Assembly (NCBI GenBank): GCA_032718475.1
Contig: JAUCBJ010004064.1
Span: 1 to 38,809 of the forward strand
DNA from: Nemertoderma westbladi
Lineage: Eukaryota; Animalia; Xenacoelomorpha
Length of the DNA stretch: 38,809 nucleotides
Reading direction: 5' to 3'
Shown: piece after piece, positions 3,911 through 35,020 of the stretch
Numbering within the stretch: the first letter of the stretch is position 1
Layout: each line of letters begins with the position of its first letter
Translations under genes and position numbers: made by a program
The notes under the pieces: model-generated
Seen by the model: only the letters and a program-made list of their open reading frames with translations
Told to the model about the DNA's origin: nothing
Database searches by the model: none

Positions 3911-4107
3911 GAGTAGGAAGCGTCCCCTCTGAGCTCTTTAAAATACCTGACCTTTTGTAGTTCATTTATTCCATCCTCAGCAGCCTTAACTACATTCCTG
4001 GTCGATCTAGTCTGTTTGAAACGGGACCTTTATGTTCCTTTGTGATATTCTCTCGGCACTTCCGAATTCTGCGGTACATCCATTCGCTTAAGTAAGGGGA
4101 AGGGATA

Positions 4108-4440
4108 GGCAGCATTGGATGGTCTGGCCAAGATTTGGAATTCCCTTTGTTTAAATTGGAATCTTAATGTTCGAATATTTAGACCAGCATTAGAGCCAGT
4201 GAGTCCATGCTAGGCACTATTAATTGCTGAGGTCTTTAAAGTGCCGGATTGCACATACATAATAATGTACACAGAGTTCATTTTGTGTTAAGTACAATGC
4301 ACAGCACACATATCCAATCAGGATTTATATAATATTATAAGTATATCATTAATCCCCCCAAGTTTGACACTTAAGAGTCTCCCCCGCTTTGTAGGACATT
4401 GAATACGCCGTGAGGACCAGTCAGTGCACGATCTTGCAGT
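4108..4440 (+). mobile_element. Older, diverged RTE-clade LINE fragment (copy 3)
   Basis: Recognisable similarity to copies 1, 2 and 4 (AAGTACAATGCACA, CCCCAAGTTTGACACT, CGCTTTGTAGGACATTG, GAGGACCAGTCAGTGCA). Confidence 0.75.
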
Positions 4441-4742: not shown

Positions 4743-5136
4743 CTGGAAACATACCAAAAAATAATACAAGATATAATAGAGCGGCTTCGCTAAACGCCAA
4801 AAGCTTTTAGTAACTTGGTGGTGATGGATGGATAAATGACACATCCCAATGTTCCTAAAATTGTTTGTAGTGGAACATATATTAATATTTTATATTTATT
4901 GCTGGAAATTCTAAAATAATTGGCGTAATACAGGCCTAACAAAAGGTAGAGTAGGGCATGATTCAATTGGAAAGGAATCAAATTCACACTGACCTGTCGG
5001 ACACATTAATTTATCTAATGATAATTAAAGGTCGTGCGGGACATACTGTCTAACAGGGGCTGTTAAATCTATATAAACAAAATAAACGGGTAAACACGAG
5101 AGTCTTACACTCCAATATGGCGTTGGGTAATCCTTT

Positions 5137-5192
5137 GTCCAGCTGATGAGGTGTCGAGATTACCGCGTACTGGGTCTCAGGCACCGAAACGC
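5137..5192 (+). ncRNA. Hammerhead ribozyme candidate 1 (permuted topology)
   Basis: CUGAUGA 5143-5149; stem II GGUGUC 5150-5155/GGCACC 5180-5185; GAAA 5186-5189; stem III GCGU 5165-5168/ACGC 5189-5192; GUA site, cut after 5169; stem I CUGGGU 5170-5175/GUCCAG 5137-5142. Confidence 0.75.
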
Positions 5193-5197
5193 AACTA

Positions 5198-5376
5198 TAT
5201 TTTTGATAAAATTAATTATTTTTGATAAAATTAATTATTTTTGATAAAATTAATTATTTTTGATAAAATTAATTATTTTTGATAAAATTAATTATTTTTG
5301 ATAAAATTAATTATTTTTGATAAAATTAATTATTTTTGATAAAATTAATTATTTTTGATAAAATTACTTATTTTTG
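5198..5376. repeat. 19-bp AT-rich tandem repeat (TTTTTGATAAAATTAATTA), ~9 copies
   Basis: Seen directly, immediately 3' of the hammerhead core. Confidence 0.95.
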
Positions 5377-6439
5377 CCCTAGTCATATATTTTCTTATAG
5401 AATATAGGCTTAGCTTTTGTGCAGTATATTACCGGTATCAGTTAGTGTATATGGCGGTTAGGCTTAGGGTTAGGGTGCGATACATATCTGTAAGTTAAGC
5501 AGATTTAATATATTTGTGTTTTTTGTTTATGTCGTTTTTGTTTGCATTGTTGGTGGTTTTTGATGGCCCTCGGGCTGAGTACTATTTTGGGTGTAATGTC
5601 CTGACACTACGTGTTTTGTTGGTTTTGTGGGGTGTAAGACTCTAGTGTTTACCTGCTTATTTTTTATATAGATTAATTTTTCTATCGCGGTAACTTGAAA
5701 TAGCATGTAATTTTTAATTATATCAAAAATAGACCCCATATAATATCTGATGTAAAAAAAATTTAAGAATTCCGATGCAAGGAAATTTCATAATTTACAG
5801 TTTTAATGGTAGCGGAGATTTTTCACATTATAATATTAGGTGTAATTGATTTATATTGTTTTACTTTAAAAACCACAATAGTTTTTATTATGTAACGAAT
5901 TCAATTTTTGGTATTTCAGGTAGACAATATCTGATGTTATGTCTGGGTCAATTTCCCTCGTTTAGTTGAGAATTTGTATTAATAAGGTTTCGTTATTGTA
6001 CCACCAGCCAAAAGATAATAAAAGATTAGACAAAGTTGCTCTGGAAATGAAATTTGTAACTATGTAAGCCATCAAATATCAACAAATGTTAGTTACCCTC
6101 ACCCTGTTGAGTAACATTAAATGTTGCTAAGGAGAGAAACATGAAATTAAAAGTATTAATGGTCAGATTTTTTTGGAGCATGTGATTATTGTAATATACA
6201 CAAAATGTACTTACAAATTATTTTTGGCAAATTTGTAACTTTTTATGTCTCTAAGCCATTCTATTATTAATTGTGGTGAATTTAAATTTTGATAGTGAAT
6301 TATAATACAGTCAATGGAAGGAGATAAGGGTGAGTGCTGCAATCATGGAAATATTTTACAATATGATGAGAATGTCGTAATGTAACAACAGCCGGCTATA
6401 TAGTGAGTCGGTTGGAATTGGGTGGAACGTTAATCTCAC

Positions 6440-7288: not shown

Positions 7289-8062
7289 TATCTCGTCTCG
7301 ATGTTCAATTATGAATTTTGCCATATCTGAAGATTAATTTTTTTCGTTTCATTTAAAAATTTTCGAGGGCGTTCATAATTAAATACTATTTAAGTAATAA
7401 TAATTAAGTAGGCCTTAATTCTGCATTGTGTTATCTATCCCATGAAGGAAAATTTAATTTGACGATATATATTTCGTAGTTTCAATAGTTGTAGTGCAAA
7501 CAAGTCAACAATCAACAGCAAGTATTCGCACATTAATTATTGTGTTCTCATTTATGAAGTTAATGTGCTAAAACTCGCTGTTAATACTGAGCAGTTTGTA
7601 CTACATCGTCAAATTAAAATTAGAAAGATGTGTTTCGCCGGAAAAAATCTGAATACGGGGAGGCCAAACTACTGGAAAAGTTGAAAGAGACAGAACCAAC
7701 CCCCATGGTCCCTATTCCAGGAAAGAACACCAATCAGTTCTGCACCCATTGCATCCGAAGTACTAGAACAACATTTCGAGAATCTATTAGGACAGAACTC
7801 AGAAGGAACAGACCAGGTTCGCATCGTTTTAGATGAGGATCGGCTACAAGACCAATGGTATAATCAGCCGATTACAGAGGACGAAATTAAAGAAGCGGTT
7901 CATTCCACGTCAAACAAAAAAGCAAGCGGCCAAGACAGAATCTAAAATGAACACCTAAAACAAATTCTTTCACTGATACTATCCATTCTGGTTTATCTTT
8001 TTAACACTTGCTTCACTATTGCTGTGATAACAACTCTTTGGGCAACTAGCATTATAAAAATA

Positions 8063-8861
8063 TGATTTTTGACAACCACGACTTTAGAGGGATTGTTATA
8101 TTAATATGAAAACAATAAAATAGGACATGGGGTCTTATTCCCTCAGATACTACCTAGCATTTAGGGCCACTTGGGCCACTGTTAGTACTCAGGCACTAAT
8201 AAGGCCCATTAAAAAACAAAATACCAAATCGATTTTAGTGCTACATAGCCCAACCCAACTACCACAAGAAAAATTACACCAAACCATACAGTAACTACAG
8301 GTTCCGGTAAGTATTGCACGAAATAGGCTATCCCATAAATTACGAAAAATATAGGACATTTTGTACGCCAAAAAGGTAAGTCTAAGTAATAAATCTGTTT
8401 GGTTAATCTCTGTTTGGTGGTACGGTAGGATTTCTAATTTATTGGTCATTGTCTTAATTTAGTGGTGCAGTTTTGTTAGGGTAGGGGTGGGGGGGTTCGT
8501 GGCACACTGCTGATGAGGAGAACCCCGAATCCCAGGGTTCAGTGTTTAAATCTCCGAAACCCTTTTATTTTTATAAAATTTATTACTTAGACTTACCTTT
8601 TTGGCGGACAAAATGTCCTATATTTTTCGTAATTTATGGGATAGCCCATTTCGTGCAATACTTACCAGAACCTGTAGTTACTGTATGGTTTGGTGTAATT
8701 TTTCTTGTGGTAGTTGGGTTGAGCTATGTAGCACTAAAATCGATTTGGTATTTTGTTTTTTGATGGGCCTTAGTGCCTATGTACTAACAGTGGGCCAAGT
8801 GGCCCTAAATGCTAGGTAGTATCTGAGGGAATAAGACACCATGTCCTATTTTATTGTTTTT
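8063..8861 (+). mobile_element. 799-bp non-coding insertion with ~285-bp inverted arms, central hammerhead and 12-bp TSD (Penelope-like pLTR derivative)
   Basis: TSD ATTATAAAAATA at 8051-8062 and 8862-8873; arms 8109-8394 and 8578-8860; removing the insert restores the LINE reading 'WATSIIKILYKGKG'. Confidence 0.8.
8504..8563 (+). ncRNA. Hammerhead ribozyme candidate 2 (permuted topology)
   Basis: CUGAUGA 8510-8516; stem II GGAGA 8517-8521/UCUCC 8551-8555; GAAA 8556-8559; stem III AGGGU 8534-8538/ACCCU 8559-8563; GUU site, cut after 8539; stem I CAGUGU 8540-8545/ACACUG 8504-8509. Confidence 0.75.
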
Positions 8862-10500
8862 ATTATAAAAATACTCTATAAAGGGAAAGGTAGCAGGACG
8901 AGTCCCGATAATTATCGCCGTTATTAGCGTGATTGCCAAAATCCTTACAAAAATAATCAACAAAAGGGTACTCCTACACATTTCCCACTTACTTCCACCG
9001 GAACAATATGGTTTCATAGAGGGAAAATCGACCATGCAAGCATTGATAAAACTAATATCAGACATCGCAGAAACACTCAGGAGACCACGTGACTCACCCG
9101 CTAACAAACCCAGGATTATAATTATATGGGCACTCATAGACTTTCACAAAGCGTTTGATTTGGTAGATCGATCTCGACTACTGTATTAAATGTATAATTC
9201 CTTTGGAATAAAGGGAAAACTCTACAATTTAATTGAAGCCCTATTCAACAACCGAGTAAAAATCTTCGATGGAATAAAATTCTCCAAGCTAATTACACAG
9301 CTCCGGGGAATTCTGCAAGGAGATAGTTTCTCACCAACATGTTTCCTTATATTTATAGCGGATCTCGCGTCAGTTCTACGGGGAATTGAGGTTCATATTT
9401 TTTGCAGATGATCTGGTGTTTTATTCGGAAAACAAAGCTGATATTCAAAAAGGCTTTGATGAACTTCAGAAATGACGTATCAAAAACTCAAAGGAAGTGA
9501 ACAAGAAAAACAAAGATAATTAAATTCCGGAATGGTGGACGTTTATCACATTTTGATGTTAATCTATTATGACGGAAAGGAAATAAATATCTACAATAAA
9601 TATGAGTATCTTGGGGTTGTTATGCAACCGTCACTGTCGTTTTCAAAGCACATCGATCAGAAGAAGAGAAGCTTTCTCTGCAATAGGATGTGTAAGACAC
9701 TTGCAACTTATTTCGATCGAAACTGGGATGAAGATATACTCTCTGAAAAAATACCCAATGTTCTGCTACGCTTTTCAAGAAATAGTCCCCCCTTTTTCAC
9801 TCTGACGAACCTCAAAGAACTGGATAAAGTGAAATTTACCTTCCTAAAAGGTCTACTTGGTTTATCAAAATACTCCTCGTCCATCTTAGCTATGAAGATA
9901 GTTGGTTGTAAATCATACGTAGAAGACCTAAAGTTGAAATATCCGGGAATTTTTGATCGAACGGTGTTAGAACAACATAGGTCATATAGACGACAGAGGG
10001 AGGAATCATTTAGCGACAACAACTTCTTAGAAGGACCGGCTTTTACCTCGCAGGGTTGGCGCGCCCCGGGCCAAAGGAACCGGCATCTTATTATGAGGGC
10101 CACCGCCCACGGCTTCCACTGGAAACTATGTAGTGACGTAACGCCATTTCACGAACTGGGTCCAACCTGTTACTGTAAATACTGTGGAGGCAGTGCGAGT
10201 GAGAGATATCACTTATTTAGCCTTAGCTGTGGGTCCCGTCCAGCAGCTGTGGGTCCTTTCCAGTGTCCAGCTCTCTCGGCTCTGGGGAACTCTAAGTGAC
10301 TACAGACCCCTCAGACTACAGACCTCTTTTTAGCAATTTAAATTTAAAATTAATATATATACAAACCTAATATTTTAAATACTCTGATTTTAATTTAAAT
10401 TTAACTGTACTCTGATAAATGTAATTTTAATGTATTAAAGATTCAATTTACCTCGTACGTGCGTCTAGATTTCTCAGAAAAAAAATTAAAATTATATTAC

Positions 10501-11910: not shown

Positions 11911-14900
11911 CAAGTAATAAGTAATATTATCTAATCCTTACCTTAAACTCTAATCATATTCATGTAATCCAAGTAATAAGTAATATTATCTAATCCTTAC
12001 CTTAAACTCTAATCAGATTCCTGTAAACCAAGTAATAAGTAATATTATATAATCCTTACCTTAAACTCTAATCATATTCATGTAATCCAAGTAATAAGTA
12101 ATATTATCTAATCCTTACCTTAAACTCTAATCATATTCATGTAATCCAAGTAATAAGTAATATTATCTAATCCTTACCTTAAACTCTAATCATATTCATG
12201 TAATCCAAGTAATAAGTAATATTATCTAATCCTTACCTTAAACTCTAATCATATTCCTGTAATCCAAGTAATAAGTAATATTATCTAATCCTTACCTTAA
12301 ACTCTAATCAGATTCCTGTAAACCAAGTAATAAGTAATATTATCTAATCCTTACCTTAAACTCTAATCATATTCATGTAATCCAAGTAATAAGTAATATT
12401 ATCTAATCCTTACCTTAAACTCTAATCAGATTCATGTAATCCAAGTAATAAGTTATATTATATAATCCTTACCTTAAACTCTAATCATATTCATGTAATC
12501 CAAGTAATAAGTAATATTATCTAATCCTTACCTTAAACTCTAATCATATTCATGTAATCCAAGTAATAAGTAATATTATCTAATCCTTACCTTAAACTCT
12601 AATCATATTCCTGTAATCCAAGTAATAAGTAATATTATCTAATCCTTACCTTAAACTCTAATCAGATTCCTGTAATCCAAGTAATAAGTAATATTATCTA
12701 ATCCTTACCTTAAACTCTAATCAGATTCCTGTAAACCAAGTAATAAGTAATATTATCTAATCCTTACCTTAAACTCTAATCAGATTCCTGTAATCCAAGT
12801 AATAAGTAATATTATCTAATCCTTACCTTAAACTCTAATCATATTCATGTAATCCAAGTAATAAGTAATATTATCTAATCCTTACCTTAAACTCTAATCA
12901 GATTCCTGTAAACCAAGTAATAAGTAATATTATCTAATCCTTACCTTAAACTCTAATCAGATTCCTGTAATCCAAGTAATAAGTAATATTATCTAATCCT
13001 TACCTTAAACTCTAATCAGATTCCTGTAAACCAAGTAATAAGTAATATTATCTAATCCTTACCTTAAACTCTAATCAGATTCCTGTAAACCAAGTAATAA
13101 GTAATATTATCTAATCCTTACCTTAAACTCTAATCAGATTCCTGTAAACCAAGTAATAAGTAATATTATCTAATCCTTACCTTAAACTCTAATCAGATTC
13201 CTGTAAACCAAGTAATAAGTAATATTATCTAATCCTTACCTTAAACTCTAATCAGATTCCTGTAATCCAAGTAATAAGTAATATTATCTAATCCTTACCT
13301 TAAACTCTAATCAGATTCCTGTAATCCAAGTAATAAGTAATATTATCTAATCCTTACCTTAAACTCTAATCAGATTCCTGTAATCCAAGTAATAAGTAAT
13401 ATTATCTAATCCTTACCTTAAACTCTAATCATATTCATGTAATCCAAGTAATAAGTAATATTATCTAATCCTTACCTTAAACTCTATAATCAAATTCCTG
13501 TAATCCAAGTAATAAGTAATATTATCTAATCCTTACCTTAAACTCTAATCATATTCATGTAATCCAAGTAATAAGTAATATTATCTAATCCTTACCTTAA
13601 ACTCTAATCATATTCATGTAATCCAAGTAATAAGTAATATTATCTAATCCTTACCTTAAACTCTAATCATATTCATGTAATCCAAGTAATAAGTAATATT
13701 ATCTAATCCTTACCTTAAACTCTAATCATATTCATGTAATCCAAGTAATAAGTAATATTATCTAATCCTTACCTTAAACTCTAATCATATTCATGTAATC
13801 CAAGTAATAAGTAATATTATCTAATCCTTACCTTAAACTCTAATCAGATTCCTGTAATCCAAGTAATAAGTAATATTATCTAATCCTTACCTTAAACTCT
13901 AATCAGATTCCTGTAATCCAAGTAATAAGTAATATTATCTAATCCTTACCTTAAACTCTAATCATATTCATGTAATCCAAGTAATAAGTAATATTATCTA
14001 ATCCTTACCTTAAACTCTATAATCAGATTCCTGTAATCCAAGTAATAAGTAATATTATCTAATCCTTACCTTAAACTCTAATCAGATTCCTGTAATCCAA
14101 GTAATAAGTAATATTATCTAATCCTTACCTTAAACTCTAATCATATTCATGTAATCCAAGTAATAAGTAATATTATCTAATCCTTACCTTAAACTCTAAT
14201 CAGATTCCTGTAAACCAAGTAATAAGTAATATTATCTAATCCTTACCTTAAACTCTAATCAGATTCCTGTAAACCAAGTAATAAGTAATATTATCTAATC
14301 CTTACCTTAAACTCTAATCAGATTCCTGTAATCCAAGTAATAAGTAATATTATCTAATCCTTACCTTAAACTCTAATCAGATTCCTGTAATCCAAGTAAT
14401 AAGTAATATTATCTAATCCTTACCTTAAACTCTAATCATATTCATGTAATCCAAGTAATAAGTAATATTATCTAATCCTTACCTTAAACTCTATAATCAG
14501 ATTCCTGTAATCCAAGTAATAAGTAATATTATCTAATCCTTACCTTAAACTCTAATCAGATTCCTGTAATCCAAGTAATAAGTAATATTATCTAATCCTT
14601 ACCTTAAACTCTAATCATATTCATGTAATCCAAGTAATAAGTAATATTATCTAATCCTTACCTTAAACTCTAATCAGATTCCTGTAATCCAAGTAATAAG
14701 TAATATTATCTAATCCTTACCTTAAACTCTAATCAGATTCCTGTAATCCAAGTAATAAGTAATATTATCTAATCCTTACCTTAAACTCTAATCATATTCA
14801 TGTAATCCAAGTAATAAGTAATATTATCTAATCCTTACCTTAAACTCTAATCAGATTCCTGTAATCCAAGTAATAAGTAATATTATCTAATCCTTACCTT

Positions 14901-17900
14901 AAACTCTAATCAGATTCCTGTAATCCAAGTAATAAGTAATATTATCTAATCCTTACCTTAAACTCTAATCAGATTCCTGTAATCCAAGTAATAAGTAATA
15001 TTATCTAATCCTTACCTTAAACTCTAATCAGATTCCTGTAATCCAAGTAATAAGTAATATTATCTAATCCTTACCTTAAACTCTAATCATATTCATGTAA
15101 TCCAAGTAATAAGTAATATTATCTAATCCTTACCTTAAACTCTATAATCAGATTCCTGTAATCCAAGTAATAAGTAATATTATCTAATCCTTACCTTAAA
15201 CTCTAATCAGATTCCTGTAAACCAAGTAATAAGTAATATTATCTAATCCTTACCTTAAACTCTAATCAGATTCCTGTAATCCAAGTAATAAGTAATATTA
15301 TCTAATCCTTACCTTAAACTCTAATCAGATTCCTGTAATCCAAGTAATAAGTAATATTATCTAATCCTTACCTTAAACTCTAATCATATTCATGTAATCC
15401 AAGTAATAAGTAATATTATCTAATCCTTACCTTAAACTCTATAATCAGATTCCTGTAATCCAAGTAATAAGTAATATTATCTAATCCTTACCTTAAACTC
15501 TAATCAGATTCCTGTAATCCAAGTAATAAGTAATATTATCTAATCCTTACCTTAAACTCTAATCATATTCATGTAATCCAAGTAATAAGTAATATTATCT
15601 AATCCTTACCTTAAACTCTATAATCAGATTCCTGTAATCCAAGTAATAAGTAATATTATCTAATCCTTACCTTAAACTCTAATCAGATTCCTGTAAACCA
15701 AGTAATAAGTAATATTATCTAATCCTTACCTTAAACTCTAATCAGATTCCTGTAATCCAAGTAATAAGTAATATTATCTAATCCTTACCTTAAACTCTAA
15801 TCAGATTCCTGTAATCCAAGTAATAAGTAATATTATCTAATCCTTACCTTAAACTCTAATCATATTCATGTAATCCAAGTAATAAGTAATATTATCTAAT
15901 CCTTACCTTAAACTCTATAATCAGATTCCTGTAATCCAAGTAATAAGTAATATTATCTAATCCTTACCTTAAACTCTAATCAGATTCCTGTAATCCAAGT
16001 AATAAGTAATATTATCTAATCCTTACCTTAAACTCTAATCAGATTCCTGTAATCCAAGTAATAAGTAATATTATCTAATCCTTACCTTAAACTCTAATCA
16101 TATTCATGTAATCCAAGTAATAAGTAATATTATCTAATCCTTACCTTAAACTCTAATCATATTCCTGTAAACCAAGTAATAAGTAATATTATCTAATCCT
16201 TACCTTAAACTCTAATCATATTCATGTAATCCAAGTAATAAGTAATATTATCTAATCCTTACCTTAAACTCTAATCATATTCATGTAATCCAAGTAATAA
16301 GTAATATTATATAATCCTTACCTTAAACTCTAATCATATTCATGTAATCCAAGTAATAAGTAATATTATCTAATCCTTACCTTAAACTCTAATCATATTC
16401 ATGTAATCCAAGTAATAAGTAATATTATCTAATCCTTACCTTAAACTCTAATCATATTCATGTAATCCAAGTAATAAGTAATATTATCTAATCCTTACCT
16501 TAAACTCTAATCATATTCATGTAATCCAAGTAATAAGTAATATTATCTAATCCTTACCTTAAACTCTAATCATATTCATGTAAACCAAGTAATAAGTAAT
16601 ATTATCTAATCCTTACCTTAAACTCTAATCATATTCATGTAATCCAAGTAATAAGTAATATTATCTAATCCTTACCTTAAACTCTAATCATATTCATGTA
16701 ATCCAAGTAATAAGTAATATTATCTAATCCTTACCTTAAACTCTATAATCATATTCCTGTAATCCAAGTAATAAGTAATATTATCTAATCCTTACCTTAA
16801 ACTCTAATCATATTCATGTAATCCAAGTAATAAGTAATATTATCTAATCCTTACCTTAAACTCTAATCATATTCATGTAATCCAAGTAATAAGTAATATT
16901 ATCTAATCCTTACCTTAAACTCTAATCATATTCCTGTAATCCAAGTAATAAGTAATATTATCTAATCCTTACCTTAAACTCTAATCATATTCCTGTAATC
17001 CAAGTAATAAGTAATATTATCTAATCCTTACCTTAAACTCTAATCATATTCATGTAATCCAAGTAATAAGTAATATTATCTAATCCTTACCTTAAACTCT
17101 AATCATATTCATGTAATCCAAGTAATAAGTAATATTATCTAATCCTTACCTTAAACTCTAATCATATTCCTGTAATCCAAGTAATAAGTAATATTATCTA
17201 ATCCTTACCTTAAACTCTAATCATATTCATGTAATCCAAGTAATAAGTAATATTATCTAATCCTTACCTTAAACTCTAATCATATTCATGTAAACCAAGT
17301 AATAAGTAATATTATCTAATCCTTACCTTAAACTCTATAATCATATTCCTGTAATCCAAGTAATAAGTAATATTATCTAATCCTTACCTTAAACTCTAAT
17401 CATATTCATGTAAACCAAGTAATAAGTAATATTATCTAATCCTTACCTTAAACTCTAATCATATTCCTGTAATCCAAGTAATAAGTAATATTATCTAATC
17501 CTTACCTTAAACTCTAATCATATTCATGTAAACCAAGTAATAAGTAATATTATCTAATCCTTACCTTAAACTCTAATCATATTCCTGTAATCCAAGTAAT
17601 AAGTAATATTATCTAATCCTTACCTTAAACTCTAATCATATTCCTGTAATCCAAGTAATAAGTAATATTATCTAATCCTTACCTTAAACTCTAATCATAT
17701 TCCTGTAATCCAAGTAATAAGTAATATTATCTAATCCTTACCTTAAACTCTAATCATATTCATGTAAACCAAGTAATAAGTAATATTATCTAATCCTTAC
17801 CTTAAACTCTAATCATATTCCTGTAATCCAAGTAATAAGTAATATTATCTAATCCTTACCTTAAACTCTATAATCATATTCCTGTAATCCAAGTAATAAG

Positions 17901-18363
17901 TAATATTATCTAATCCTTACCTTAAACTCTAATCATATTCATGTAATCCAAGTAATAAGTAATATTATCTAATCCTTACCTTAAACTCTAATCATATTCA
18001 TGTAAACCAAGTAATAAGTAATATTATATAATCCTTACCTTAAACTCTAATCATATTCATGTAATCCAAGTAATAAGTAATATTATCTAATCCTTACCTT
18101 AAACTCTAATCAGATTCATGTAATCCAAGTAATAAGTAATATTATATAATCCTTACCTTAAACTCTAATCAGATTCATGTAATCCAAGTAATAAGTAATA
18201 TTATCTAATCCTTACCTTAAACTCTAATCATATTCATGTAATCCAAGTAATAAGTAATATTATCTAATCCTTACCTTAAACTCTAATCATATTCATGTAA
18301 TCCAAGTAATAAGTAATATTATCTAATCCTTACCTTAAACTCTAATCATATTCCTGTAAACCA
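11911..18363. repeat. 59-bp intronic satellite array, ~109 copies
   Basis: Unit CAAGTAATAAGTAATATTATCTAATCCTTACCTTAAACTCTAATCA(T/G)ATTC(A/C)TGTAA(T/A)C, with occasional +2-bp variants. Confidence 0.98.
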
Positions 18364-18508
18364 AATTTACAGGAATCCGGATAAAACTAACAGGTTAAAA
18401 ATTCAAACATAAATTAGCTCTTCATCACCAGAAACATTTTTCAAGAAGGACTAACATTCAACGTCAATAATACCTCATCATACATTTTGGTTTACTCATA
18501 AATCTTAC

Positions 18509-18655
18509 CCAGGAGGAACCATTTATACTGCGCCATAACACAACGTAATGAGATATCGTTAAGGTTCCATTGGGTGATAGGGGTGGTTGCCAAGCAACTG
18601 TTATCGAATTCCAATTTATGACTATCACCTCAACGTCACGACAGGGAGGCAGTGG
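18509..18655 (-). CDS. FN3 receptor gene exon
   Basis: PLPPCRDVEVIVINWNSITVAWQPPLSPNGTLTISHYVVLW; TTGCAG acceptor, GTAAGA donor; 147 nt, phase 0/0. Confidence 0.9.
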
Positions 18656-19394
18656 CTGCAATAAAAGTTAAATATTCTGTAAGAAAATAATAATTATATA
18701 GCCTACTGTATGTATATTTTGTGTATATTGAATTAGAATTTAATAGAAACTAAATCGTATGATGTATGTAGCGGAGATGGACTGCATTCGGATTCATGGC
18801 GTTGTTCATTTCATCCTCACCTCTTTAGCAATATGCCAAACTCTGTTTATTGTTAGTACGAACCAGCTGTTTTGACACACCCATTATCACCTCCTACCAG
18901 GCATTAGGCCTACTGGGGCTTTATTGAACCATTGATGTAAGGGGAGGGGGGCAAGAAGGGAATGGCTTCCTATTGGATATTTGGGATGAAGAATTATTAT
19001 AATTAATCCTGGGCCAATAGTGTTAGCTTGTTTCACACATATAACATTCATGTATTGGCTTCATTGATCATTGGTAGAATTTTAATTACAAATAACAAAA
19101 TAACAAAACAAATAGTGGTTCCCCCTAAGGAGCCATTAAATTCACGTACTTTTAGTTGCAACTGAGATATTACATTTTATTATAGTTTTACAATATCAAC
19201 TTGGATCTCTTTACTACTCTAAACTTTGTAACTCACTGATGGATACACCTCAGATCAGTATTAATCATTATTATTATTATTATTATTATTCACTATTATT
19301 TACTCTCTATAAATGATAGATCTAATGTACAGAAACAGGTTGCTGTGCTTTTTGGGATAGTACTACAGTAAATCGAGTTACAACAGACAGACAG

Positions 19395-21365
19395 ACGAAA
19401 ACGGGCGAAAAAGTTTGAAATGTAGAGAAAACAGACGAAAATAGTAAGATCGTTTAAAAATTACCACCAGATGAAAATAACTATTATTCTACATTTAAGT
19501 AGGTGTTATAATAAATTTAAAATTTAGTTGCATTCATTATAATCACCAATAGGCCTATAAGATTACTTTCTTCTCTACAATACCCACGACCTCCGAGAGA
19601 TGTGAATTCAATGCGACCACTACACCAAGGTGGAACCTATTACGGGTGGAACCAACGGTTGCCTTACAACCGTTGGTGCTGCTAGGCCTATCGCCTATCA
19701 GCTTATACAAATTCAAGGTAGGCCCTAATTACCAATAGCCTCTAGACCAGTGCCTTGGCAGTGGATTAATTATTACAGTGTACAGTGGACCGTGGGATCT
19801 TTAGACCTACTACTGTAGGCCTACTACTACTTACTACTGTACAACAATCAACACTACTCGTGTACGCAAATTTCCAATTGGGGAGTCGTTTCAGCCCTCC
19901 CATAGGGTTAATGTTAAATTAATATTGAAAAATTAGTGCAATTGAAGGCTTAATCAAACAGCTTAAATGTAAAATACAAGTAGCTCAGAATAAAGTAGTA
20001 CGATTTATTAAAGACTACAAACCCAGACACCACCTACCAGCCTACTGTAACTCAAGATGACTTCTCCGAACTTAACTTATATAGTAGAGTTAAGCAGCTA
20101 CGCCTTAACCGTGTGCTCGTGTGCATAAAGTGTCCCAATTACCTACAACAAAAGTAAAGAAAGCAGGTACGCCTTAACCATGTGCATAAAGTGTATAGGG
20201 GGCGGGGCCTAATGGTAAGTGTCCCAATAACCTAAGACAAAAATTCAACAGTACGCGATACACACTCTTACAGTACAGAGCTAGTGCTTCAATTATTTAC
20301 CTTTCGAATTGTAAATCCTTCGAAACTGATACTTTCTTTTTTAACGGTATTTACGTAATTATTTAAGTTTTATAATTTGTAATTTGTTCATAGTTACATA
20401 TTTATCTTTGAGTCGGAGTATTGTCTCGGTAAAGGTGAACGTAGTGTAATTACGTTTTATATTTGTTTTAGGTTAGTGTAGTAATTGTGATTTTGTAATA
20501 TTATATATGTAACCAAGTAACATAAAGGACCCCCTTGGAAATAAGCTGCAAAGCTTTAGGGTAATCCTATGTTATGTTGGACAATGCCTACTGTAGGCCT
20601 TTATACATTGTTTGGTGTATTTGTTATTGTTTTTACATAATGTATAAATAAATTTATCTATAAATAGCCTAGAAGTAAAAATTTTACTGTAAACTGTGTT
20701 CCTAAATTTATTTTATAGTTCTGGTTAGAAAAAGTTGGCATTAATACCTTCTAAAAAGGTACCTTAAATGGTGAATAGACCTATCGAAATTAAACATGTC
20801 GCGAAATTAAGTTAATATGTTAAAATCTGAAACGACATCCAAATTGGTAATATGCATACCGGTGTGCCAATGCGTTAGCATTGAATTTATTATTATTTCA
20901 GTACAGCGTACAGCGCAGTACATTACAAATTTGGATGTCCTTTCAGCCTATTTTAACATATTAATTTAATTTCACGAATATTTAATTTCAATATTCAACA
21001 TTTAAGGTACCTTTTAAAGGAAAGTAGGAGGTTATAAAGGCAGGCTTTTCTAACCAAAACAAACTAATTTTAGGAACACAGTACAGTAAAATTTGTACTT
21101 CTAGGCACTAATTTTTCATTATTAATTTAACATTAACCCTATGAGAAGGCTGAAACGACACCTTGGAAATTAGCCACCGGTACATGGTTCGCAATAACTG
21201 TGTTATTATAATCTTAATTTGGCGACATGGTATAAGCAACAAAATTTTAAATTCATTATAACACGTAGTTAAGTTTCATATTTATTTTCACCTGGTGGTT
21301 ATTTTTAAACGATCTAACTATATTCGTCTGTTTTCCCTACATTCAAGTGTTTTCGCCTGTTTTCA
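19395..21365. mobile_element. Old foldback (long inverted repeat) element with an interrupted left arm
   Basis: Right arm ~20920-21365 is the imperfect reverse complement of left-arm pieces ~19395-19535, ~19865-19939 and ~20667-20851. Confidence 0.75.
19940..20666 (+). mobile_element. 3' end of a CR1/L2-group LINE inserted in the foldback arm
   Basis: LKCKIQVAQNKVVRFIKDYKPRHH resembles post-RT LINE ORF2 sequence; ends in an AATAAA/AT-rich tail where arm symmetry resumes. Confidence 0.6.
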
Positions 21366-21588
21366 TGATCTACAGTAGTACCGGTTCCGGTACTAACAAT
21401 TTTTTGCTATTTGTATGAATTATACTATTGTTTGTTTTTTTTGCAATGTCTAAAGTGATTGACATTTACCTTATTTTCTCTCTATTTATTTATCAAAGAT
21501 ATCGGTAATTAAATAAGTGTCCTGGTAGGCCTAATGTGGTTGGTACGTGTATTTAACTCTGACTGATATAATATAATAATTGACAAAA

Positions 21589-22191
21589 ATGGATAATCTC
21601 AACATAATAATAGCGTTATTTCTATGTGTGAACTTCATTCACGCAGTTTATGGAGCCGTAACTTGTGAAGAAGGTTTCACGATTGTAGTTAAATCGGACA
21701 ATTCCAAAATACAGGAAGTTACGCAACAGATGTTTGATAATTTATCAACTCAATTGCCGAAGACAACTAATGATAATTGTGGGAAGTGTATGGCAATGTC
21801 TATCCTATTCGGTGGAAAGATGAAGGATGCTGATGTCAACGTCGCTATGTCAACGTCATTTGTTATGTGTTTGCCAGAAGAGGTTGTGGATATGTGCAAA
21901 CCTCTTACTGAGGACCAATGTCCTGGAAAAGGTGTTGACGAAATTCCTCTCGCAAAAGCCATACAGGGTATGGTAGAGGATTTGAAGCCCCAGTATGAGG
22001 ACCCTCAGGTAGCATGCCAGTGGGAATGTTGTGATGGAGCGTGCGATACCAAATGGAATAATAATCCTTTCGGAGCTGATGGGGAAGTTAATTGGAGTAG
22101 CTCTTTCTTAACCGGTGGGGCCCCTGGCAACGCAATATATATTTGTCTGGTGGTTGCCATGGTTGCACTCGGAGTACTGTTCCAGAACTAG
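21589..22191 (+). CDS. Secreted, probably GPI-anchored Cys-rich protein, Ly6/uPAR (three-finger)-like, 200 aa; nested antisense in an FN3 intron
   Basis: AAAATGG start context; N-terminal signal peptide (NIIIALFLCVNFIHAVYG); ~10 Cys in the mature part ending in ECCDGACD; small-residue region then a hydrophobic C-terminus with no cytoplasmic tail. Confidence 0.8.
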   Translation: MDNLNIIIALFLCVNFIHAVYGAVTCEEGFTIVVKSDNSKIQEVTQQMFDNLSTQLPKTTNDNCGKCMAMSILFGGKMKDADVNVAMSTSFVMCLPEEVVDMCKPLTEDQCPGKGVDEIPLAKAIQGMVEDLKPQYEDPQVACQWECCDGACDTKWNNNPFGADGEVNWSSSFLTGGAPGNAIYICLVVAMVALGVLFQN

Positions 22192-22626: not shown

Positions 22627-23188
22627 CATGGGCAGCCTTGAATAGGCTTTCCAGGATTTGGAAGTCACAGAGAATTAATCGGAAACTTAAGGTCCGATTA
22701 TTTGGAGCAGCAGTAGTTCCAGTACTCCTCTATGGGAGTCCATGCTGGGCTCTCCATACTGGGCTCTAACTGCTGAGGACACCAAATCTCTGGATGGCAC
22801 ATTCACAATAATGCTACGCCGGGTTCATTATGTCAAGTACAATGCACACATCTCCAACCAGACACTATATAACATTGGAGGTGTCTCATTGGTTCCCCCA
22901 AGCTTGACACTAGAACAAAGTCGCCTCCGCTTTGCAGGACATTGCTTTCGCCTAGAGGACCAGCCAGTGCATAATCTTGTACTTTGGCAGCCACATGGAG
23001 TGAATAAGCATGGTGGACAGCCCATGACATTCTTGAGACGCATCTTAAAGGACACTGGCCTTAAAAATGCGGATGATCTAGCAAATGTCATGGGTGATAG
23101 TTAGTTGTGGCGGCGCAATTTTGTCGACAAGCCGGTACAGCATTCTTAAAAATGCAGCTGCAATGCAGCATGCCGATCCTAGTAGTAG
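22627..23188 (+). mobile_element. 5'-truncated RTE-clade LINE, copy 4
   Basis: Near-identical to copies 1 and 2; (TAG) tail; small internal duplication near 22740-22765. Confidence 0.9.
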
Positions 23189-27704: not shown

Positions 27705-28637
27705 TCAGTAAAGTAGAATCCGCTTCTCTACGGCTTTGCGGCATATCGGACACTCGTTCATTCGGTCGCCACACAGCTGACAGGCCCCGTGGCCGCACAG
27801 AAAGATCATGTTCTTTATCCGGTCGAGACAGACGGGACACATTGTCTGCTCCTTAATGTCCTGGAGCTGCTGCTCGAGCTTCCGTACGTCCGACGAGTTC
27901 TCCACGAGCAGGGCCCCGGGGGCCAACTGGTCGCCGGCGTCGGACCGCAGCTGGGCCGAGTTGTTGAGAGGCGCCACGTTGGATGGCGGCACAGCGGCGG
28001 CGTTTTGGGCGGCGCCGCAGCACACGGACAACGGGACCATGGCCTCGATCTCGGTGCGGCACTGGACGCACTTCTTCATGAGCACGGCGCAACCGTCGCA
28101 CGCGCACATGTGGCCGCAGGGCCGGAACAGGACGCAGGCCTTCCTGTCCGAACAGACGACACACTCCTCGATGGGCGTCCGACTGCGCACCGCCTCCTTA
28201 CAAATCAAACATTTCTTTACGCGCGAGGCACACAGCGAACACGTAGCAACGTGTCCGCACGGACCAATCAGAGTGTCCCGTTTCAGGTCGGAGCAGACCA
28301 TGCACTCATCCAGCCCTGCAGCAGCCTTCTCATTGCTATTCTTCTCCGGAGGCCCGTTGTAACTGTCGCTGTTCCGATCCTTGTGACACTTGACGAGCGC
28401 CTTGCACAGGTTAGGATCCGGACACAAGTCCAACGGGGTCTGGTTCTTTTTGTTCTTTATGTTGAGGTCGGCGCCGTTGGCCGCTAGGAAACACGCGATG
28501 GACGCGCTGGACTTTTTGTCCGCGCCCTGGGAACCCAGACCCATGAGCAGTTTACCCACGTCCTGCATATCCTGCAGCTGCCGCAGTTGGCTCAGGGTGT
28601 GGTGTCTGAGGGCCTCGTGTAGGGGGGTATCCCCGTC
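27705..28637 (-). CDS. mib1: mind bomb 1 exon 3 (last ankyrin repeats and three RING fingers)
   Basis: TTCTCCTAG acceptor; [26 protein letters not shown]...[44 protein letters not shown]. Confidence 0.96.
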
Positions 28638-28755
28638 CTAGGAGAACAAATCGTTAATATAATTAGCATTTTAACATACGGCTTACCTCCCGGCGGGGAC
28701 TTCTCTTATTGGTAAAATTTAATTAGCAACGCGGTATATTAATATAGCAGCTTAC

Positions 28756-29703
28756 CTTATCCTGTATATCCAACCGACAGCCCTGTCTCACTAACAACCT
28801 CACTATCTGCGTATGTTGTCTCTCCACCGAGAGATGCAACGCCGACTGTAGGTTCCCATTCTGTATGTTCACGTCGGCCCTCCCCAGATGGACCAACAAC
28901 TCCGCGACCTCGCAATGATTATTCAACGAGGCCAGATGCAACGCGGTGTAGCCGTCGTCTTTAGGCTCGTCCACCACCCAGGCTCGCGGCAACTTAGCCA
29001 ATAGTATCCGAACAGCCGAGGGGTTGCCGCGCAACGCGGCGTGATGCAACGCGCAGAAGCCGTTGTTATTGGTGAGTCGCATATCGGCGTTGTAATCCAG
29101 GAGTAGTTGAATCATATCCTCTCGTTTCTTGCTGATGGCGTCGTGTAACGGAGTGTCGCCCTCGTTGTCCTGGAGACTGGGCAGCGCGCCCAGCACTAAC
29201 AGCTGCTTGACGACGCCCACGTGGCCCTTATTGACCCCGATATGGAGCGCGGTCTGTCTGCGTTTGTTCCGGGCGTTGAGGTCGGCCCCGGTGCGACTGA
29301 GCAGCTCGATGACTGCGGGCTCGTCCCCGAAGGCCGAGTGGTGCACGGCTCGGTCCCCGTCCCGATCCTCGATCTCCAACTCGACCCCGTGACGGATGAG
29401 TCCCCGCACGACCTCGATGTGGCCGTTCTGGGAGGCGGCTTGCAGCGCCGTGTGGCCCGCGAACACCCCGTTGGGGTCCGCGTCGCTCCGGCCCAACAAC
29501 TCCTCGACCCTCCCGCCGTCCCCGTTCGCCGCCGCTTTCACTAAATCCTCGTTAACGTCGCCCGTCACGTGCGTCTCGAATAGTTTCTTTAGCAGCGCCG
29601 AGAGTCTCTCGCTGCTGTTCGATGCGCTGGTAGCGCCCGCCTCTGAGTCCACACGACTAACGGCTCCCGGGTTGTAAGTCCAAGACGTTCCGCAAACTTC
29701 CAC
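28756..29703 (-). CDS. mib1: mind bomb 1 exon 2 (end of second Mib repeat and ankyrin repeats)
   Basis: [12 protein letters not shown]...[13 protein letters not shown]...; AG acceptor, GTAAGC donor; 948 nt, phase 0/0. Confidence 0.96.
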
Positions 29704-31524
29704 CTTTATAAGGGAAATAATAAAATAATTAACTAAGTCGTATAATTCACTCTTAATGCGAAATAATATCAAACTGAGAGGCAATTTAAACAGAAAACTA
29801 TCCTGGATGTCGGAAGAGCCGATGAACGGATGAACCTGTTACAAATACAGCGATGGAGCGGCATATTGATTATATCCATGTTTGGTCATTATTAAAAAAT
29901 CTAACAATAATTTTAGGCTGCAAGTTGTTCGATGTGAGGTTGGAATTGTTCACGTTGAATATTGCATTGATGTAACACTGACTGTATATATATATATTAT
30001 AAAAAGTTGTTTTACAGACTGGTATTACTTTACGGCATTACAGTGGTAGACGACCTACGAATAATATATACGACATTAAGGGGAGGGACATACAAGGGGG
30101 ACTTAACTTAACACCTATATATATAGAGGTAGTGAAGAAAAATTTAATAGCTGTTCATTGTGCTTATCAAATTCCCCTTAAAAAGAGCTTTCGAATGATA
30201 TATGTTTGTTTATAGATTTTGAAACAAAAATTGTTTTGACGAAAATCCCATCTTAAGTTTGGCCACTTTTAGTGATTGTTACCGGCTATAGGGGGAATAT
30301 AATATAATACTTCTAGATAGATACCAATTTAGTTTCCAGAGCAACGGAAATTTGTCTAATAATTGAACCATTTTTAATACCAATGTTGCTGTTACAATAT
30401 AAGGACCTTATTTACACAACTTCTCTACTAAACGGGTGGATGTAACCTCGCCAATCGGATTTATCGACCTCAAAAACCCTTATCCCCAAAAAATGTATTT
30501 GTTATATGATAAACTATTGTGCTTTTCAAACGAAAACAAATAAATAAATTACACCTAAAATCAATAGAGCAATCACATTTTAATTATGTGAAAAATCTTC
30601 ACTAACATTAATGGAAATTATGAAATTTCCCTGCAGTGGAAAATTGTATAATTATTTTACAACGGTTTCCTTAATATAACGTGAAGTTTTTGATATATTT
30701 AAAAATTTTATGCGACTTCTAGTTACCGAGATATAGCAATTAATGTGTAACACGCCAGTTTAAATATTACTAATTTCCCATTGAATCACAGCTTATTGTG
30801 AAATTAATTAAATTATTCTGGAACGTCACCAATTTGCCACTTACTTTTCCCTACTGTTCCTTTTGTTTGGCTTGTGTTAAGCAAATTTACGCAGAATTTC
30901 CATGAATAAACATATGATCCGCAAAATAAAATTATATAGACTTTTTTTGGTCATTTATAAGGTAATATAGAATCCAAAATATGTGGTTCGGATTAATTGC
31001 GAAATACTTATGGGTTTTTTGCTAGATTGACTTGACTATAAGTCATCTGATGATGTGGCAGATCTAAATAAGGAATACGATCAGAATCGACAGCATGGAG
31101 AATAACAAAGTATCAGGATTTATAGCTATAAAATAAATGTATAGTAAAAACAATTTTAATGAATGACAAAGTATCAGGATTGATAGCTATAAATGTATAG
31201 TAAAAAACAATAATGATGTTGATAATTAATGTTGAAATGGTGAAAATGTTGATAATTTGGAAATTTGTTTTTGAATTCTCCATTGTATTATACTGTATAT
31301 TGACTACTTTTTCTGTATCTGTTTTTGTGCTTTTATCCATTAAGTCTCATTTCAAACGTCATACTTATCTACTTTTACAGCTAATCTGCTAAAGAAATAT
31401 TTCGTTTTGAGGTTAACAATTGAGTGAAAGAATATGTAATATAATGTTGGATGATATTATCTTTCTGTTGTACAGTAAAATTTATTTTTGCAATTGATAA
31501 CAACCTTGTTGGTCCGACCGAGGT

Positions 31525-32955
31525 TGCATCATGTACCGAAGGGAAAACAACACCTTGTGGGGGTGCATCATGTACCGAAGGGAAAACAACACGTTGTGGG
31601 CGTGCATCATGTACCGAAGGGAAAACAACACCTTGTGGGGGGTGCATCATGTACCGAAGGGAAAACAACACCTTGTGGGGGTACATCATGTACCGAAGGG
31701 AAAACAACACCTTGTGGGGACACGTGCATCATTTACCGAAGGGAAAACAACACCTTGTGGGCGTGAATCATGTACCGAAGGGAAAACAACACCTTGTGGG
31801 CGTGCATCATGTACCGAAGGGAAAACAACACCTTGTGGGGACACGTGCATCATTTACCGAAGGGAAAACAACACCTTGTGGGCGTGAATCATGTACCGAA
31901 GGGAAAACAACACCTTGCGGGCGTGCATCATGTACCGAAGGGAAAACAACACCTTGCGGGCGTGCATCATGTACCGAAGGGAAAACAACACCTTGTGGGG
32001 GTGCATCATTTACCGAAGGGAAAACCACACCTTGCGGGCGTACATCATGTACCGAAGGGAAAACAACACCTTGTGGGCGTGAATCATGTACCGAAGGGAA
32101 AACAACACCTTGCGGGCGTGCATCATGTACCGAAGGGAAAACAACACCTTGCGGGCGTGCATCATGTACCGAAGGGAAAACAACACCTTGTGGGCGTGAA
32201 TCTTGTACCGAAGGGAAAACAACACCTTGCGGGCGTGCATCATGTACCGAAGGGAAAACAACACCTTGCGGGCGTGCATCATGTAACGAAGGAAAAACAA
32301 CACCTTGTGGGGGTGCATCATGTACCGAAGGGAAACAACACCTTGTGGGGGTGCATCGTGTACCAAAGGGAAAACAACACCTTGTGGGCGTGCATCATGT
32401 ACCGAAGGGAAAACAACACCTTGTGGGCGTGCATCATGTACCGAAGGGAAAACAACACCTTGTGGGCGTGCATCATGTACCGAAGGGAAAACAACACCTT
32501 GTGGGCGTGCATCATGTACCGAAGGGAAAACAACACCTTGTGGGGGTGCATCATGTACCGAAGGGAAAACAACACCTTGTGGGCGTGCATCATGTACCGA
32601 AGGGAAAACAACACCTTGTGGGCATGCATCATGTACCGAAGGGAAAACAACACCTTGTGGGCGTGCATCATGTACCGAAGGGAAAACAACACCTTGCGGG
32701 CGTGCATCATGTACCGAAGGGAAAACAACACCTTGTGAGCGTAGGTGTACGGACATTTCCGACCCGGACAATTCCGACCCATGAAAATTTAATTAGACCC
32801 TTGGCTTTGAATGGGTCGGAATTGTCCGGGTCGGAATTGTCCGGATCGCAATTGACCGGGTCGGAATTGTCCTAACTTCGTGGGCATGCATCATGTACCG
32901 TACAACACCTTGTGGGGGTGCATCATGTACCGCAGGGAAAACAACAGCTTGCATG
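31525..32955. repeat. 39-bp minisatellite (TGCATCATGTACCGAAGGGAAAACAACACCTTGTGGGCG), ~31 copies plus 2 degenerate units, in mib1 intron 1
   Basis: Seen directly; interrupted at ~32744-32878; generates the long spurious repetitive ORFs. Confidence 0.97.
32744..32878. mobile_element. Small MITE-like element built from inverted 15-bp subrepeats
   Basis: Two GGACAATTCCGACCC-like units face four GGGTCGGAATTGTCC-like units; the 39-bp array resumes after it. Confidence 0.65.
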
Positions 32956-33853
32956 GATGAACAATGTCTTAAAAAGGATTCGATAATAATAATTGGTAAT
33001 AAAAGACTTAAATTAATTGAAACAAAGGTTTGCCAAAAAGCTTTTGGAGAAGTTTTTTGGACTTTTTGGAGATACTGGGTTTTGGCATAAATCCAAATCC
33101 CAATATCTCCAAAAAGTTTCATACCAAAACCCAGTATCAACGACTATGCCTCATTTCATGAGTAATAATTAAATTCTTGGAAATAGATTCCTGTTTTTTA
33201 TTGGTTGGCTAAATTAACCAATGGCTTCCCTTGGTTCTGACAAATTTTGGGTTCATTTCATAGCTTTGATCATCAATCGCAGAAGGTCCAAAGTCTTTTG
33301 CGTTTTTCTCAAAATGAAAAATTTGGGGATACTGTGTTTTCGAATGAAAGGGCCGTGCAAGTGCGGAGCTATTTTGGATCGGCTAGCCTTTAGTGCGGAG
33401 GCTATAAGTTGAGCACCGGTGCTGAAATACATAAGCCGTTGTCATATGACCTCTATATGACACATATATATTTTTTGGGTTTGAGCACCAGTGCACAATC
33501 CGCACTGCACTAGTACCAGTGCGGATTGAGCGCCGGTGCTCAATATTTCCACTTATATATATGGCGGGATTTTTAAAATTCCCAAAGATTACCTATTATT
33601 TGATTTAGTTCATTAATTAATTAATTAATCGATAGTTAAGCAATAACTGTCTAATGTTTACTTTTTATATGTTAATGTATATTGCATGAGCAAATGTGCT
33701 GTTGTAACAATAACAATGTTATTTCATATTGTTTTACTTTCTGAATGTTTTTAAATTTTAAAACCCAAATGAATGATGGGGGGGGGGGGGGGGGTTGGGG
33801 TGGGGGTCGTTAAACTCTAGATTATCTACTACGCCCAGCCCATACACAAGCAT

Positions 33854-34160
33854 GGACCCAAGGGAGGGGAGGCTATGGGGCTACCCCCGGACCCAAGGGA
33901 GGGGAGGCTATGGGGCTACCCCCGGACCCAAGGGAGGGGAGGCTATGGGGCTACCCCCGGACCCAAGGGAGGGGAGGCTATGGGGCTACCCCCGGACCCA
34001 AGGGAGGGGAGGCTATGGGGCTACCCCCGGACCCAAGGGAGGGGAGGCTATGGGGCTACCCCCGGACCCAAGGGAGGGGAGACTATGGGGCTACCCCCGG
34101 ACCCAAGGGAGGGGAGGCTATGGGGCTACCCCCGGAACCAAGGGAGGGGAGGCTATGGGC
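33854..34160. repeat. 35-bp G-rich minisatellite (GGACCCAAGGGAGGGGAGGCTATGGGGCTACCCCC), ~9 copies
   Basis: Seen directly. Confidence 0.97.
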
Positions 34161-35020
34161 AGATGGGGCTAGTAAAATAATAAAAAAATTTGAAAATTTT
34201 TGATGAAATTCAAACCACTAACCCAGGACGGGAAGGAGCTAATGAGATGCGGTTTTTTCCAAGGTGGCTCTCCATTGTTTTATGATATTGAATTTGAGCA
34301 CCGGTGCCCAAAGACATTCCCACAAAATGTAATTAGCAAAAAGTAAATTGTTGAGCACCGGTGCACAATCCGCATTTGAGGAACTACACAGGAATGTTCA
34401 CCGGTGCAAAATCCGCACTAACTAAACGCCAATCCTCAAATACTGCCGCAGTCATGGAACAGCACGTGGTTGTTCACTGGTGCAAAATTCACAGTAACAA
34501 AGAACCAGTGGTTTCGGAGCCGCAGCTAACGTGTTAACAGTCTATACAAAAACCAATTCTTCTTTCCGATCTTGATAAATGCCTTCCCCACGCCCACACC
34601 ACCCCAATTCAATACAGTTTTTAACTTTAATACTTTTTCTTTACTTTTACTACTTTTACTTTAATATTTAGTTTATATAGATTTTATATACCAGGCAATA
34701 CAGACCCAAAACTAAACAAAAGATTAACCAATTTGCGTAATTTGCGTTACGTAATTTAAGGACCTTTTAAAATCACGTAACGCTTTTTTGTATGGACTAA
34801 TTTTGGACAGGCTATATAGTTTATTCCCATTGGCAGCTCAAATATGATGCTATGATAATGACTGAGATTGCCACTGAATGCCATTCCATCTCCACCAGAT
34901 GAACTTAAAGTTTTTAGATTGGGCATTGTAGGGTTTCAACCACGATCGATTTTCAACTGATGTTGATTTCAACTGATTGAAGAAGAAACTTTAAGTAAAT
35001 TAGAAAGGTTAGCGACTCAC

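Follow-up and report, generated by a model that had tools for sequence, protein, structure and literature searches.

A predicted self-cleaving type CSG hammerhead ribozyme in a probable Naiad-type Penelope-like retrotransposon of an animal genome

Positions 5126-5192 (+ strand) of the 38,809-nt stretch of animal DNA analyzed here, referred to throughout as the window, very probably form a conserved hammerhead fold of type CSG (motif A). The evidence is best explained by a self-cleaving CSG hammerhead located within the pLTR/3' UTR fragment of a Naiad-type Penelope-like retrotransposon (PLE), a reading that we regard as probable, with cleavage predicted after A5169. The copy of this repeat in the window (element A) is a 5'-truncated insertion without an ORF. 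The permutation itself is already published and is not new here. Eckert et al. 2023 (PMC10085705) defined six hammerhead block orders, among which type CSG is a non-circular permutation found as five hits, comprising two unique but similar sequences, in soil metagenome DNA. Both of these, CSG-1 and CSG-2, cut where predicted, with rates of 0.004 and 0.026 per min, and do so without any element protein, and the passages of that paper covered here report no associated ribozyme or element for the soil sequences.

In motif A, the cleavage-site strand sits between the two strands of stem II, yielding the block order C-S-G (core, site, GAAA). Its parts are arranged as follows:

5126-5132, + strand: leader strand of a fourth helix, which links the regions of stems I and II and has 5158-5164 as its other strand
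5137-5155, + strand: block C (stem I 5' strand, CUGAUGA, stem II 5' strand)
5156-5164, + strand: linker 1; 5158-5164 pairs with the leader, 5156-5160 alternatively with 5174-5178
5165-5175, + strand: block S (stem III 3' strand, A5169 with the predicted cut 3' of it, stem I 3' strand); site by analogy with CSG-1 and CSG-2
5180-5192, + strand: block G (stem II 3' strand, GAA, stem III 5' strand)

Stem I (5137-5142 with 5170-5175, + strand) comprises 6 bp, both distal pairs being G-U, stem II (5150-5155 with 5180-5185) comprises 6 bp including one G-U, and stem III (5165-5168 with 5189-5192) comprises 4 bp including the A15.1-U16.1 pair; stem lengths of 6, 6 and 4 bp are consistent with type CSG. 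The hammerhead core is intact, with CUGAnGA (CUGAUGA, 5143-5149, + strand), GAAA (its GAA at 5186-5188, + strand), UH, and the first pairs G10.1-C11.1 and A15.1-U16.1 all in place. The predicted cleavage-site base is A5169 (GUA), and the two linkers measure 9 nt (5156-5164) and 4 nt (5176-5179). Every part of the permuted hammerhead that a preliminary description had placed at 5137-5192 was recovered at its position on the + strand, and the linkers of 12 and 5 nt that it gave for a related motif near 8504 have precisely those lengths. The span it proposed is sound with regard to the core and stems, but begins too late, as it leaves out the leader helix that starts at 5126. This helix pairs 5126-5132 with 5158-5164 in linker 1 through 7 Watson-Crick pairs. 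The extra helix of type CSG, formed between leader and linker 1, is present in both hammerheads of the window, with 7 bp in motif A and 11 bp in the second family when the majority letter at 8525 is used.

A descriptor requiring three stems of at least 4 bp each and a G-C first pair in stem II was run on both strands of the 38,809-nt window and matched exactly twice, at motif A and at a second motif (motif B), while 4220 dinucleotide-preserving shuffles of the window, both strands included, yielded no match. With a looser descriptor, none of 243 database loci matching the core pattern folded as CSG (3 and at least 120 loci from viral contigs, at least 120 from metagenome contigs), and no loci in genome contigs matched the core pattern. 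Chance and coding matches dominated these core-pattern scans, which failed to recover CSG-1 and CSG-2 and so are uninformative on absence. Rfam models gave no match in the window at gathering thresholds; these models are nested and a misfit is expected. No canonical hammerhead was found in the window. Within 300 nt, no strand of comparable length was found that could serve motif A as an alternative (canonical) partner, and motif B has three weak ones.

8492-8563, + strand: motif B, a second type CSG hammerhead with a leader helix; predicted cut after U8539

The leader helix of motif B (8492-8502 with 8523-8533) forms 10 of 11 pairs in the window copy. At position 8525, all of the listed depth from four public DNA runs, which represent at most three samples of the host species, carries A, as opposed to C in the window, which removes the sole mismatch and completes the helix at 11 bp in the other copies. 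Counted from coordinates, and with the leader-helix register set by hand, 22 pairs can be compared between the two motifs: 12 are the same, 3 differ on one side, 7 differ on both sides and none is broken, such that covariation, drawn here from two sequences, supports the CSG helices. The two host repeats are also related outside of their ribozymes. Their 3' regions align with a score of 68, whereas 500 local shuffles averaged 33 and peaked at 53, so that none reached the observed value. Homology of the 3' regions indicates two diverged families of one kind.

The preliminary description had viewed motifs A and B as sequence-unrelated, independent instances whose compensatory changes make chance unlikely. 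The argument against chance holds, given the seven double changes, the absence of broken pairs and the empty result from the 4220 shuffles. "Sequence-unrelated" is too strong a term for motifs whose host repeats align in their 3' regions, and this homology identifies A and B as diverged relatives rather than separate origins. The broader proposal, namely that repeat elements harbor a conserved family of such permuted hammerheads, with cleavage predicted after A5169, is supported by the covariation, by high repeat depth, by the connectivity shared with CSG-1 and CSG-2, and by the Naiad consensus folds (paired by eye) discussed below.

Both motifs reside within deeply covered sequence. Summed contig depth, which marks repeat edges and is not equal to copy number, was 7135 at 5130-5147 in run X1 compared to 16-26 at 5067-5111, and in run X2 it was 12151 over motif A compared to 61 upstream. 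The step lies near 5119, directly before the leader. The tail of element A is likewise elevated (146-405 at 5013-5057 vs. ~21 alongside, run X1), and depth over motif B ranges from 12000 to 22000 compared to 40 past 8875 (run X1). The deepest listed contigs over motif A differ from the window by 0-2 letters. In family B, variants occur at 1 of 72 ribozyme positions vs. 33 of 297 downstream positions (Fisher p 0.006), although 15 rows are missing from the variant table and the former count may be low; the lone listed ribozyme variant is one that completes the leader helix.

The repeats carrying these motifs are single insertions. Element A (5013-5671) is flanked by 8-bp direct repeats and was inserted into an older repeat, and element B (8063-8861), with direct repeats of 12 bp, interrupts a decayed LINE reverse transcriptase:

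5005-5012, no strand: left target-site duplication of element A, 8 bp; identical 8-mer at 5672-5679
5013-5065, - strand: one-sided tail of element A, 53 nt, beyond the 3' end, on the inverted copy; it continues the inverted arm and has no right-hand counterpart
5066-5114, - strand: inverted 5'-truncated copy of the element A 3' end; 88% identical to 5628-5674 on the opposite strand
5198-5376, + strand: 19-nt tandem expansion, 9.4 copies, inside element A
5377-5671, + strand: 3' region of element A, homologous to element B 8564-8861
5672-5679, no strand: right target-site duplication of element A
8051-8062 (left) and 8862-8873 (right), no strand: target-site duplication of element B, 12 bp
8063-8108, - strand: one-sided tail of element B, 46 nt; loose ends behind 8860 (runs X1 and X2) start alike
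8109-8394, - strand: inverted 5'-truncated copy of the element B 3' end; 8097-8394 is 95% identical to 8578-8873 reversed

Local alignment of the flanks identified a related older repeat at ~30600-30940 (- strand) that matches both flanks of element A without the insert, and loose ends behind 5003 in other contigs run on like the right flank of element A. The target of element B is a decayed LINE with reverse transcriptase fragments at window positions 7650-10300; the RVT_1 match at 8869-9186 belongs to this LINE, which element B interrupts, and contigs over 8862-8960 preceded by left-flank-like sequence (runs X1 and X2) represent the empty site. In both elements, an inverted and truncated copy of the element's 3' end comes before the 5'-truncated sense copy. 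An inverted 5'-truncated copy adjoining the element together with a one-sided tail is the anatomy expected of a PLE. Depth steps, varied flanks behind 8860 and empty-site contigs further indicate a repeat dispersed over many sites. Among other copies of element B, the strand-switch joints fall at three different places. Loose ends reveal longer copies that go on upstream of 5119 and 8408; some element B contigs start at 8533-8544. Both target sites consist of A+T only, and a TA run in the loose ends behind 5061 may belong to the element. Element B carries one similar 19-nt unit at the place equivalent to the tandem expansion of element A. Neither window copy contains an ORF, nor do the loose ends within their reach of 30 letters, and a Pfam scan of 16 window ORFs returned no GIY-YIG domain. 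A non-LTR retrozyme was considered as the host and rejected: head-to-tail type I units are absent, the copies are single and of type CSG, and no tandem unit holds the motif. Both 3' regions also include a TGATGGCC-like motif (window 5561-5577 and 8761-8775), next to which element A has a short G+C hairpin; we take this motif to resemble part of stem II of the canonical PLE hammerhead, of which it may be a relic.

Several other features were noted in the window. A gene for the mind bomb E3 ligase MIB1 occupies 27708-36172 on the - strand, with exons at 35012-36172, 28726-29838 and 27708-28637 that are unusually long and richer in G+C than their flanks. Its product is ~75% identical to many bilaterian proteins, which indicates an animal host. 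In a tree of its N-terminal exon built from 47 of 120 homologues, the gene sits on a long branch, none of the 47 other rows being closely related to it; no nematode is present among the named rows, so no tie of the host to nematodes can be read from it. Long inverted-repeat (foldback) elements lie at 37965-38807, 19397-21364 and 20638-21135, nested at 19-21 kb, and the CUGAnGA core is absent from both strands of all three. A satellite at 11911-18364 consists of 109 copies of a 59-bp unit that are 97% alike and exhibit a strong GC skew. The 3' part of a LINE-like element is present in four copies that are 70-95% alike (578-1471, 2465-2954, 4105-4436 and 22627-23188), the first of which has a weak RVT_1 match. 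Lastly, a 203-residue open frame at 21580-22191 appears by eye to be cysteine-rich with hydrophobic ends and has a weak Tubulin_C match below the cut-off.

The host repeat is very likely a PLE, and it probably belongs to the Naiad clade. According to Craig et al. 2021 (PMC8557442), PLE insertions, those of Naiads included, exhibit inverted truncated copies and one-sided tails of 30-40 bp. In the passages of that paper covered here, Naiads are reported without canonical hammerheads and cores fitting no descriptor are noted; these are labelled HHR_core or HHR_half_core, and eight have a GAAA half 35-50 nt away. The core-to-GAAA spacing of motifs A and B is 36 and 39 nt, inside this HHR_half_core class, and elements A and B resemble Naiads in lacking a canonical hammerhead and in having a long-spaced core near the 3' end, as well as in the inverted 5'-truncated copy, the one-sided tail and the TA-rich ends. 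They depart from the published description in their tails of 46-53 nt and in their clear 8- and 12-bp duplications, and elements A and B are known here from ORF-less copies. A Naiad ORF is marked by an N-terminal GIY-YIG domain, a CxC motif and a DKA motif, with the RT at its C-terminal end.

The supplement of the same paper, whose metadata list 54 Naiad rows, was searched for core strings (unbroken, + strand) and the hits were paired by eye. All eight of the eight nematode Naiad consensus sequences contain a contiguous CSG fold, with 5-6 bp in stem I, 4-5 bp in stem II, 6-12 bp in stem III and 9-18 bp in the leader helix; three Nippostrongylus sequences are named by adjacent headers, and two Pristionchus, Haemonchus, Heligmosomoides and Ascaris were assigned by file order and lengths. 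Ten non-nematode passages (File S5 parts 8-12, 19 and 24) display, by eye, the same helices and connectivity in a circularly shifted form, in which the stem II 5' strand comes first and the core last. This corresponds to a chain opened between CUGAnGA and stem II and lies outside the six orders of Eckert et al. Three of the ten are Acropora by their headers, while one ctenophore, one Clytia, two Octopus, two in part 12 and one in part 19 (probably a crustacean) were placed by file position. Most have an extra helix that connects the base following CUGAnGA with the stretch preceding stem II; this helix is not clear in Octopus and is partial in one part-12 passage; other defects are a ctenophore stem I of 2 bp and mismatches in one Acropora copy. 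Two further cores (parts 17 and 19) could not be folded by eye and were left out of the count. A CSG-type fold is consequently found in at least 18 of the 54 Naiad consensus sequences, a number that may change with further parts of the supplement; given the kind of search, the lack of a match in the other sequences carries little weight. On balance, we favor the view that non-circularly permuted hammerheads, rather than being a rarity of metagenomes, are the standard Naiad ribozyme across animal phyla, occurring as contiguous CSG in nematodes and the present host and in the form opened between CUGAnGA and stem II in a ctenophore, cnidarians, a probable crustacean and octopus.

How motif A might function can be envisaged from this topology. 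In the + strand transcript, the site strand would be threaded between the strands of stem II, pairing with the upstream strand of stem I and the downstream strand of stem III. Stems I and II would be clamped by the leader helix, which would take over from the usual contact between loops. The leader helix probably stacks on stem III as well, since the two directly adjoin in both motifs with no intervening unpaired base. Cleavage by the standard core would proceed through transesterification, as it does for CSG-1 and CSG-2. The hammerhead is probably active, and motif A together with its leader is quite likely to cleave in vitro, with the cut predicted after A5169. Its weak points are a stem III of 4 bp and three G-U pairs in stems I and II. 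In tandem pLTR-ORF-pLTR arrays, the cut would trim read-through precursors to unit length, and work cited in PMC8557442 has proposed such precursor processing for the hammerheads of PLEs. Since each of the three stems has strands on both sides of the cut, ~16 bp would hold the products together, instead of stem I alone as in type I. Joined in this way through stems I, II and III, they would presumably favor re-ligation or circularisation of the unit-length RNA. According to PMC11167929, the hammerhead of a Poseidon PLE required protein in order to cut and could be dispensed with for in vitro insertion, and none of the RNA-seq reads had an end at its site. These results speak against a simple role of hammerheads in transposition.

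Motif A has a competing structure to be considered, an extended stem II hairpin already raised in the preliminary description. In nested folding, stem II extends into a hairpin through pairing of 5156-5160 with 5174-5178, with a probability of ~0.6 when the leader is included and 0.68-1.0 for 5137-5192 without it, and the leaderless segment is accordingly predicted to fold as an inactive extended hairpin. The leader helix has a probability of ~0.01 in such folding, although the program forms no pseudoknots and leaves the CSG fold unmeasured. It is conceivable, if rather unlikely, that the fold is inherited from an active ancestor and that the naked RNA is held in this hairpin as an OFF state, cutting with a protein, as a tandem-copy dimer, or never. 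Such a scenario would accommodate the hairpin probabilities, the protein-assisted cleavage of the Poseidon hammerhead (PMC11167929), and a second subfamily (loose end behind 5158) in which a similar competing extension is seemingly kept and stem I has just 4 bp. It is countered by the stacking terms, which amount to -38.5 kcal/mol for the four CSG helices and -19.9 for stem II plus its extension (loop costs not counted), by the cleavage of CSG-1 and CSG-2 without element protein (PMC10085705), and by motif B, in which no comparable stem II extension was found, as is also the case, by eye, for the nematode Naiad examples.

A different possibility concerns the host rather than the fold. The hammerhead could be a true CSG ribozyme carried by another PLE clade, or by a short non-autonomous, retrozyme-like derivative moved in trans by a PLE enzyme. 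The lack of an ORF in either copy or within reach of the loose ends would fit, as would the proposal that animal retrozymes are non-autonomous PLE derivatives (bioRxiv 10.64898/2026.07.22.740005). We nevertheless consider it improbable: loose ends before 5119 and 8408 indicate that full-length copies reach further upstream than either truncation point, a head-to-tail tandem is seen in neither copy, other PLE clades have hammerheads written as canonical folds in the File S2 rows listed, and among the matches listed the CSG topology occurs in Naiads only. Both motifs are flanked by inverted repeats and the window has no Rfam family at gathering score, which might instead suggest a chance arrangement or a plain hairpin in a foldback DNA element. 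Against this stand the absence of the fold from all 4220 shuffles and from all 243 pattern-matched loci, the 7 double changes with no pair broken, and an anatomy of unequal inverted arms, one-sided tails and joints that vary between copies, unlike fixed terminal inverted repeats. A chance or foldback origin is largely refuted already and we view it as highly improbable, leaving the Naiad-borne, self-cleaving CSG hammerhead as the preferred reading.

Should permuted hammerheads indeed be the standard Naiad ribozyme, soil animals would be the source of the orphan soil CSG sequences, and Naiad RNA would tend to re-ligate or circularise owing to the clamped-nick topology. Retention of a rearranged hammerhead by Naiads of different phyla would mean that the ribozyme is under long-term selection, its role in transposition would become directly testable, and many natural variants would be available for determining the structure of the permuted fold. 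Type CSG was formerly weakly supported, by two similar sequences with neither host nor role, and it now gains divergent, covarying animal members as well as a likely home. No type CSG hammerhead was found in animals, Naiads or other PLEs in the literature searched, which included few subscription journals, and the term "type-CSG" occurs in the Eckert paper only, among the matches listed. The passages covered of a July 2026 preprint on retrozymes and PLEs name hammerhead types I-III only (bioRxiv 10.64898/2026.07.22.740005), and those of PMC13725137, which cites Eckert et al., do not link CSG to animals or Naiads.

When compared to known permuted hammerheads, motifs A and B share with CSG-1 and CSG-2 the C-S-G order, a core that is intact, a length of 5-6 bp for stems I and II, and a short linker 2. 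The helix between leader and linker 1 is also evident in the published CSG alignment (PMC10085705), which has the same four-helix connectivity. Unlike CSG-1 and CSG-2, motifs A and B are found in an animal genome, within two high-depth repeat families, and have different stems and GUA or GUU sites; by eye, the published CSG descriptor would miss both of them, as stem III is too short in A and linker 1 exceeds 10 nt in B. Type SGC (HRIMA-1, Eckert et al. 2023) belongs to the same topological class, CSG, SGC and GCS being mutual circular shifts, but has its ends elsewhere and comprises 583 sequences, mainly from metatranscriptome and metagenome data. With the canonical type I hammerheads of PLE pLTRs and non-LTR retrozymes, motif A has in common its site in a terminal repeat and a proposed function in processing tandem precursors (Cervera and de la Pena 2014, as cited in PMC8557442 and PMC11167929; bioRxiv 10.64898/2026.07.22.740005). 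The type I PLE hammerheads, however, are of the circular permutation CGS and form a three-way junction, whereas motif A is doubly pseudoknotted.
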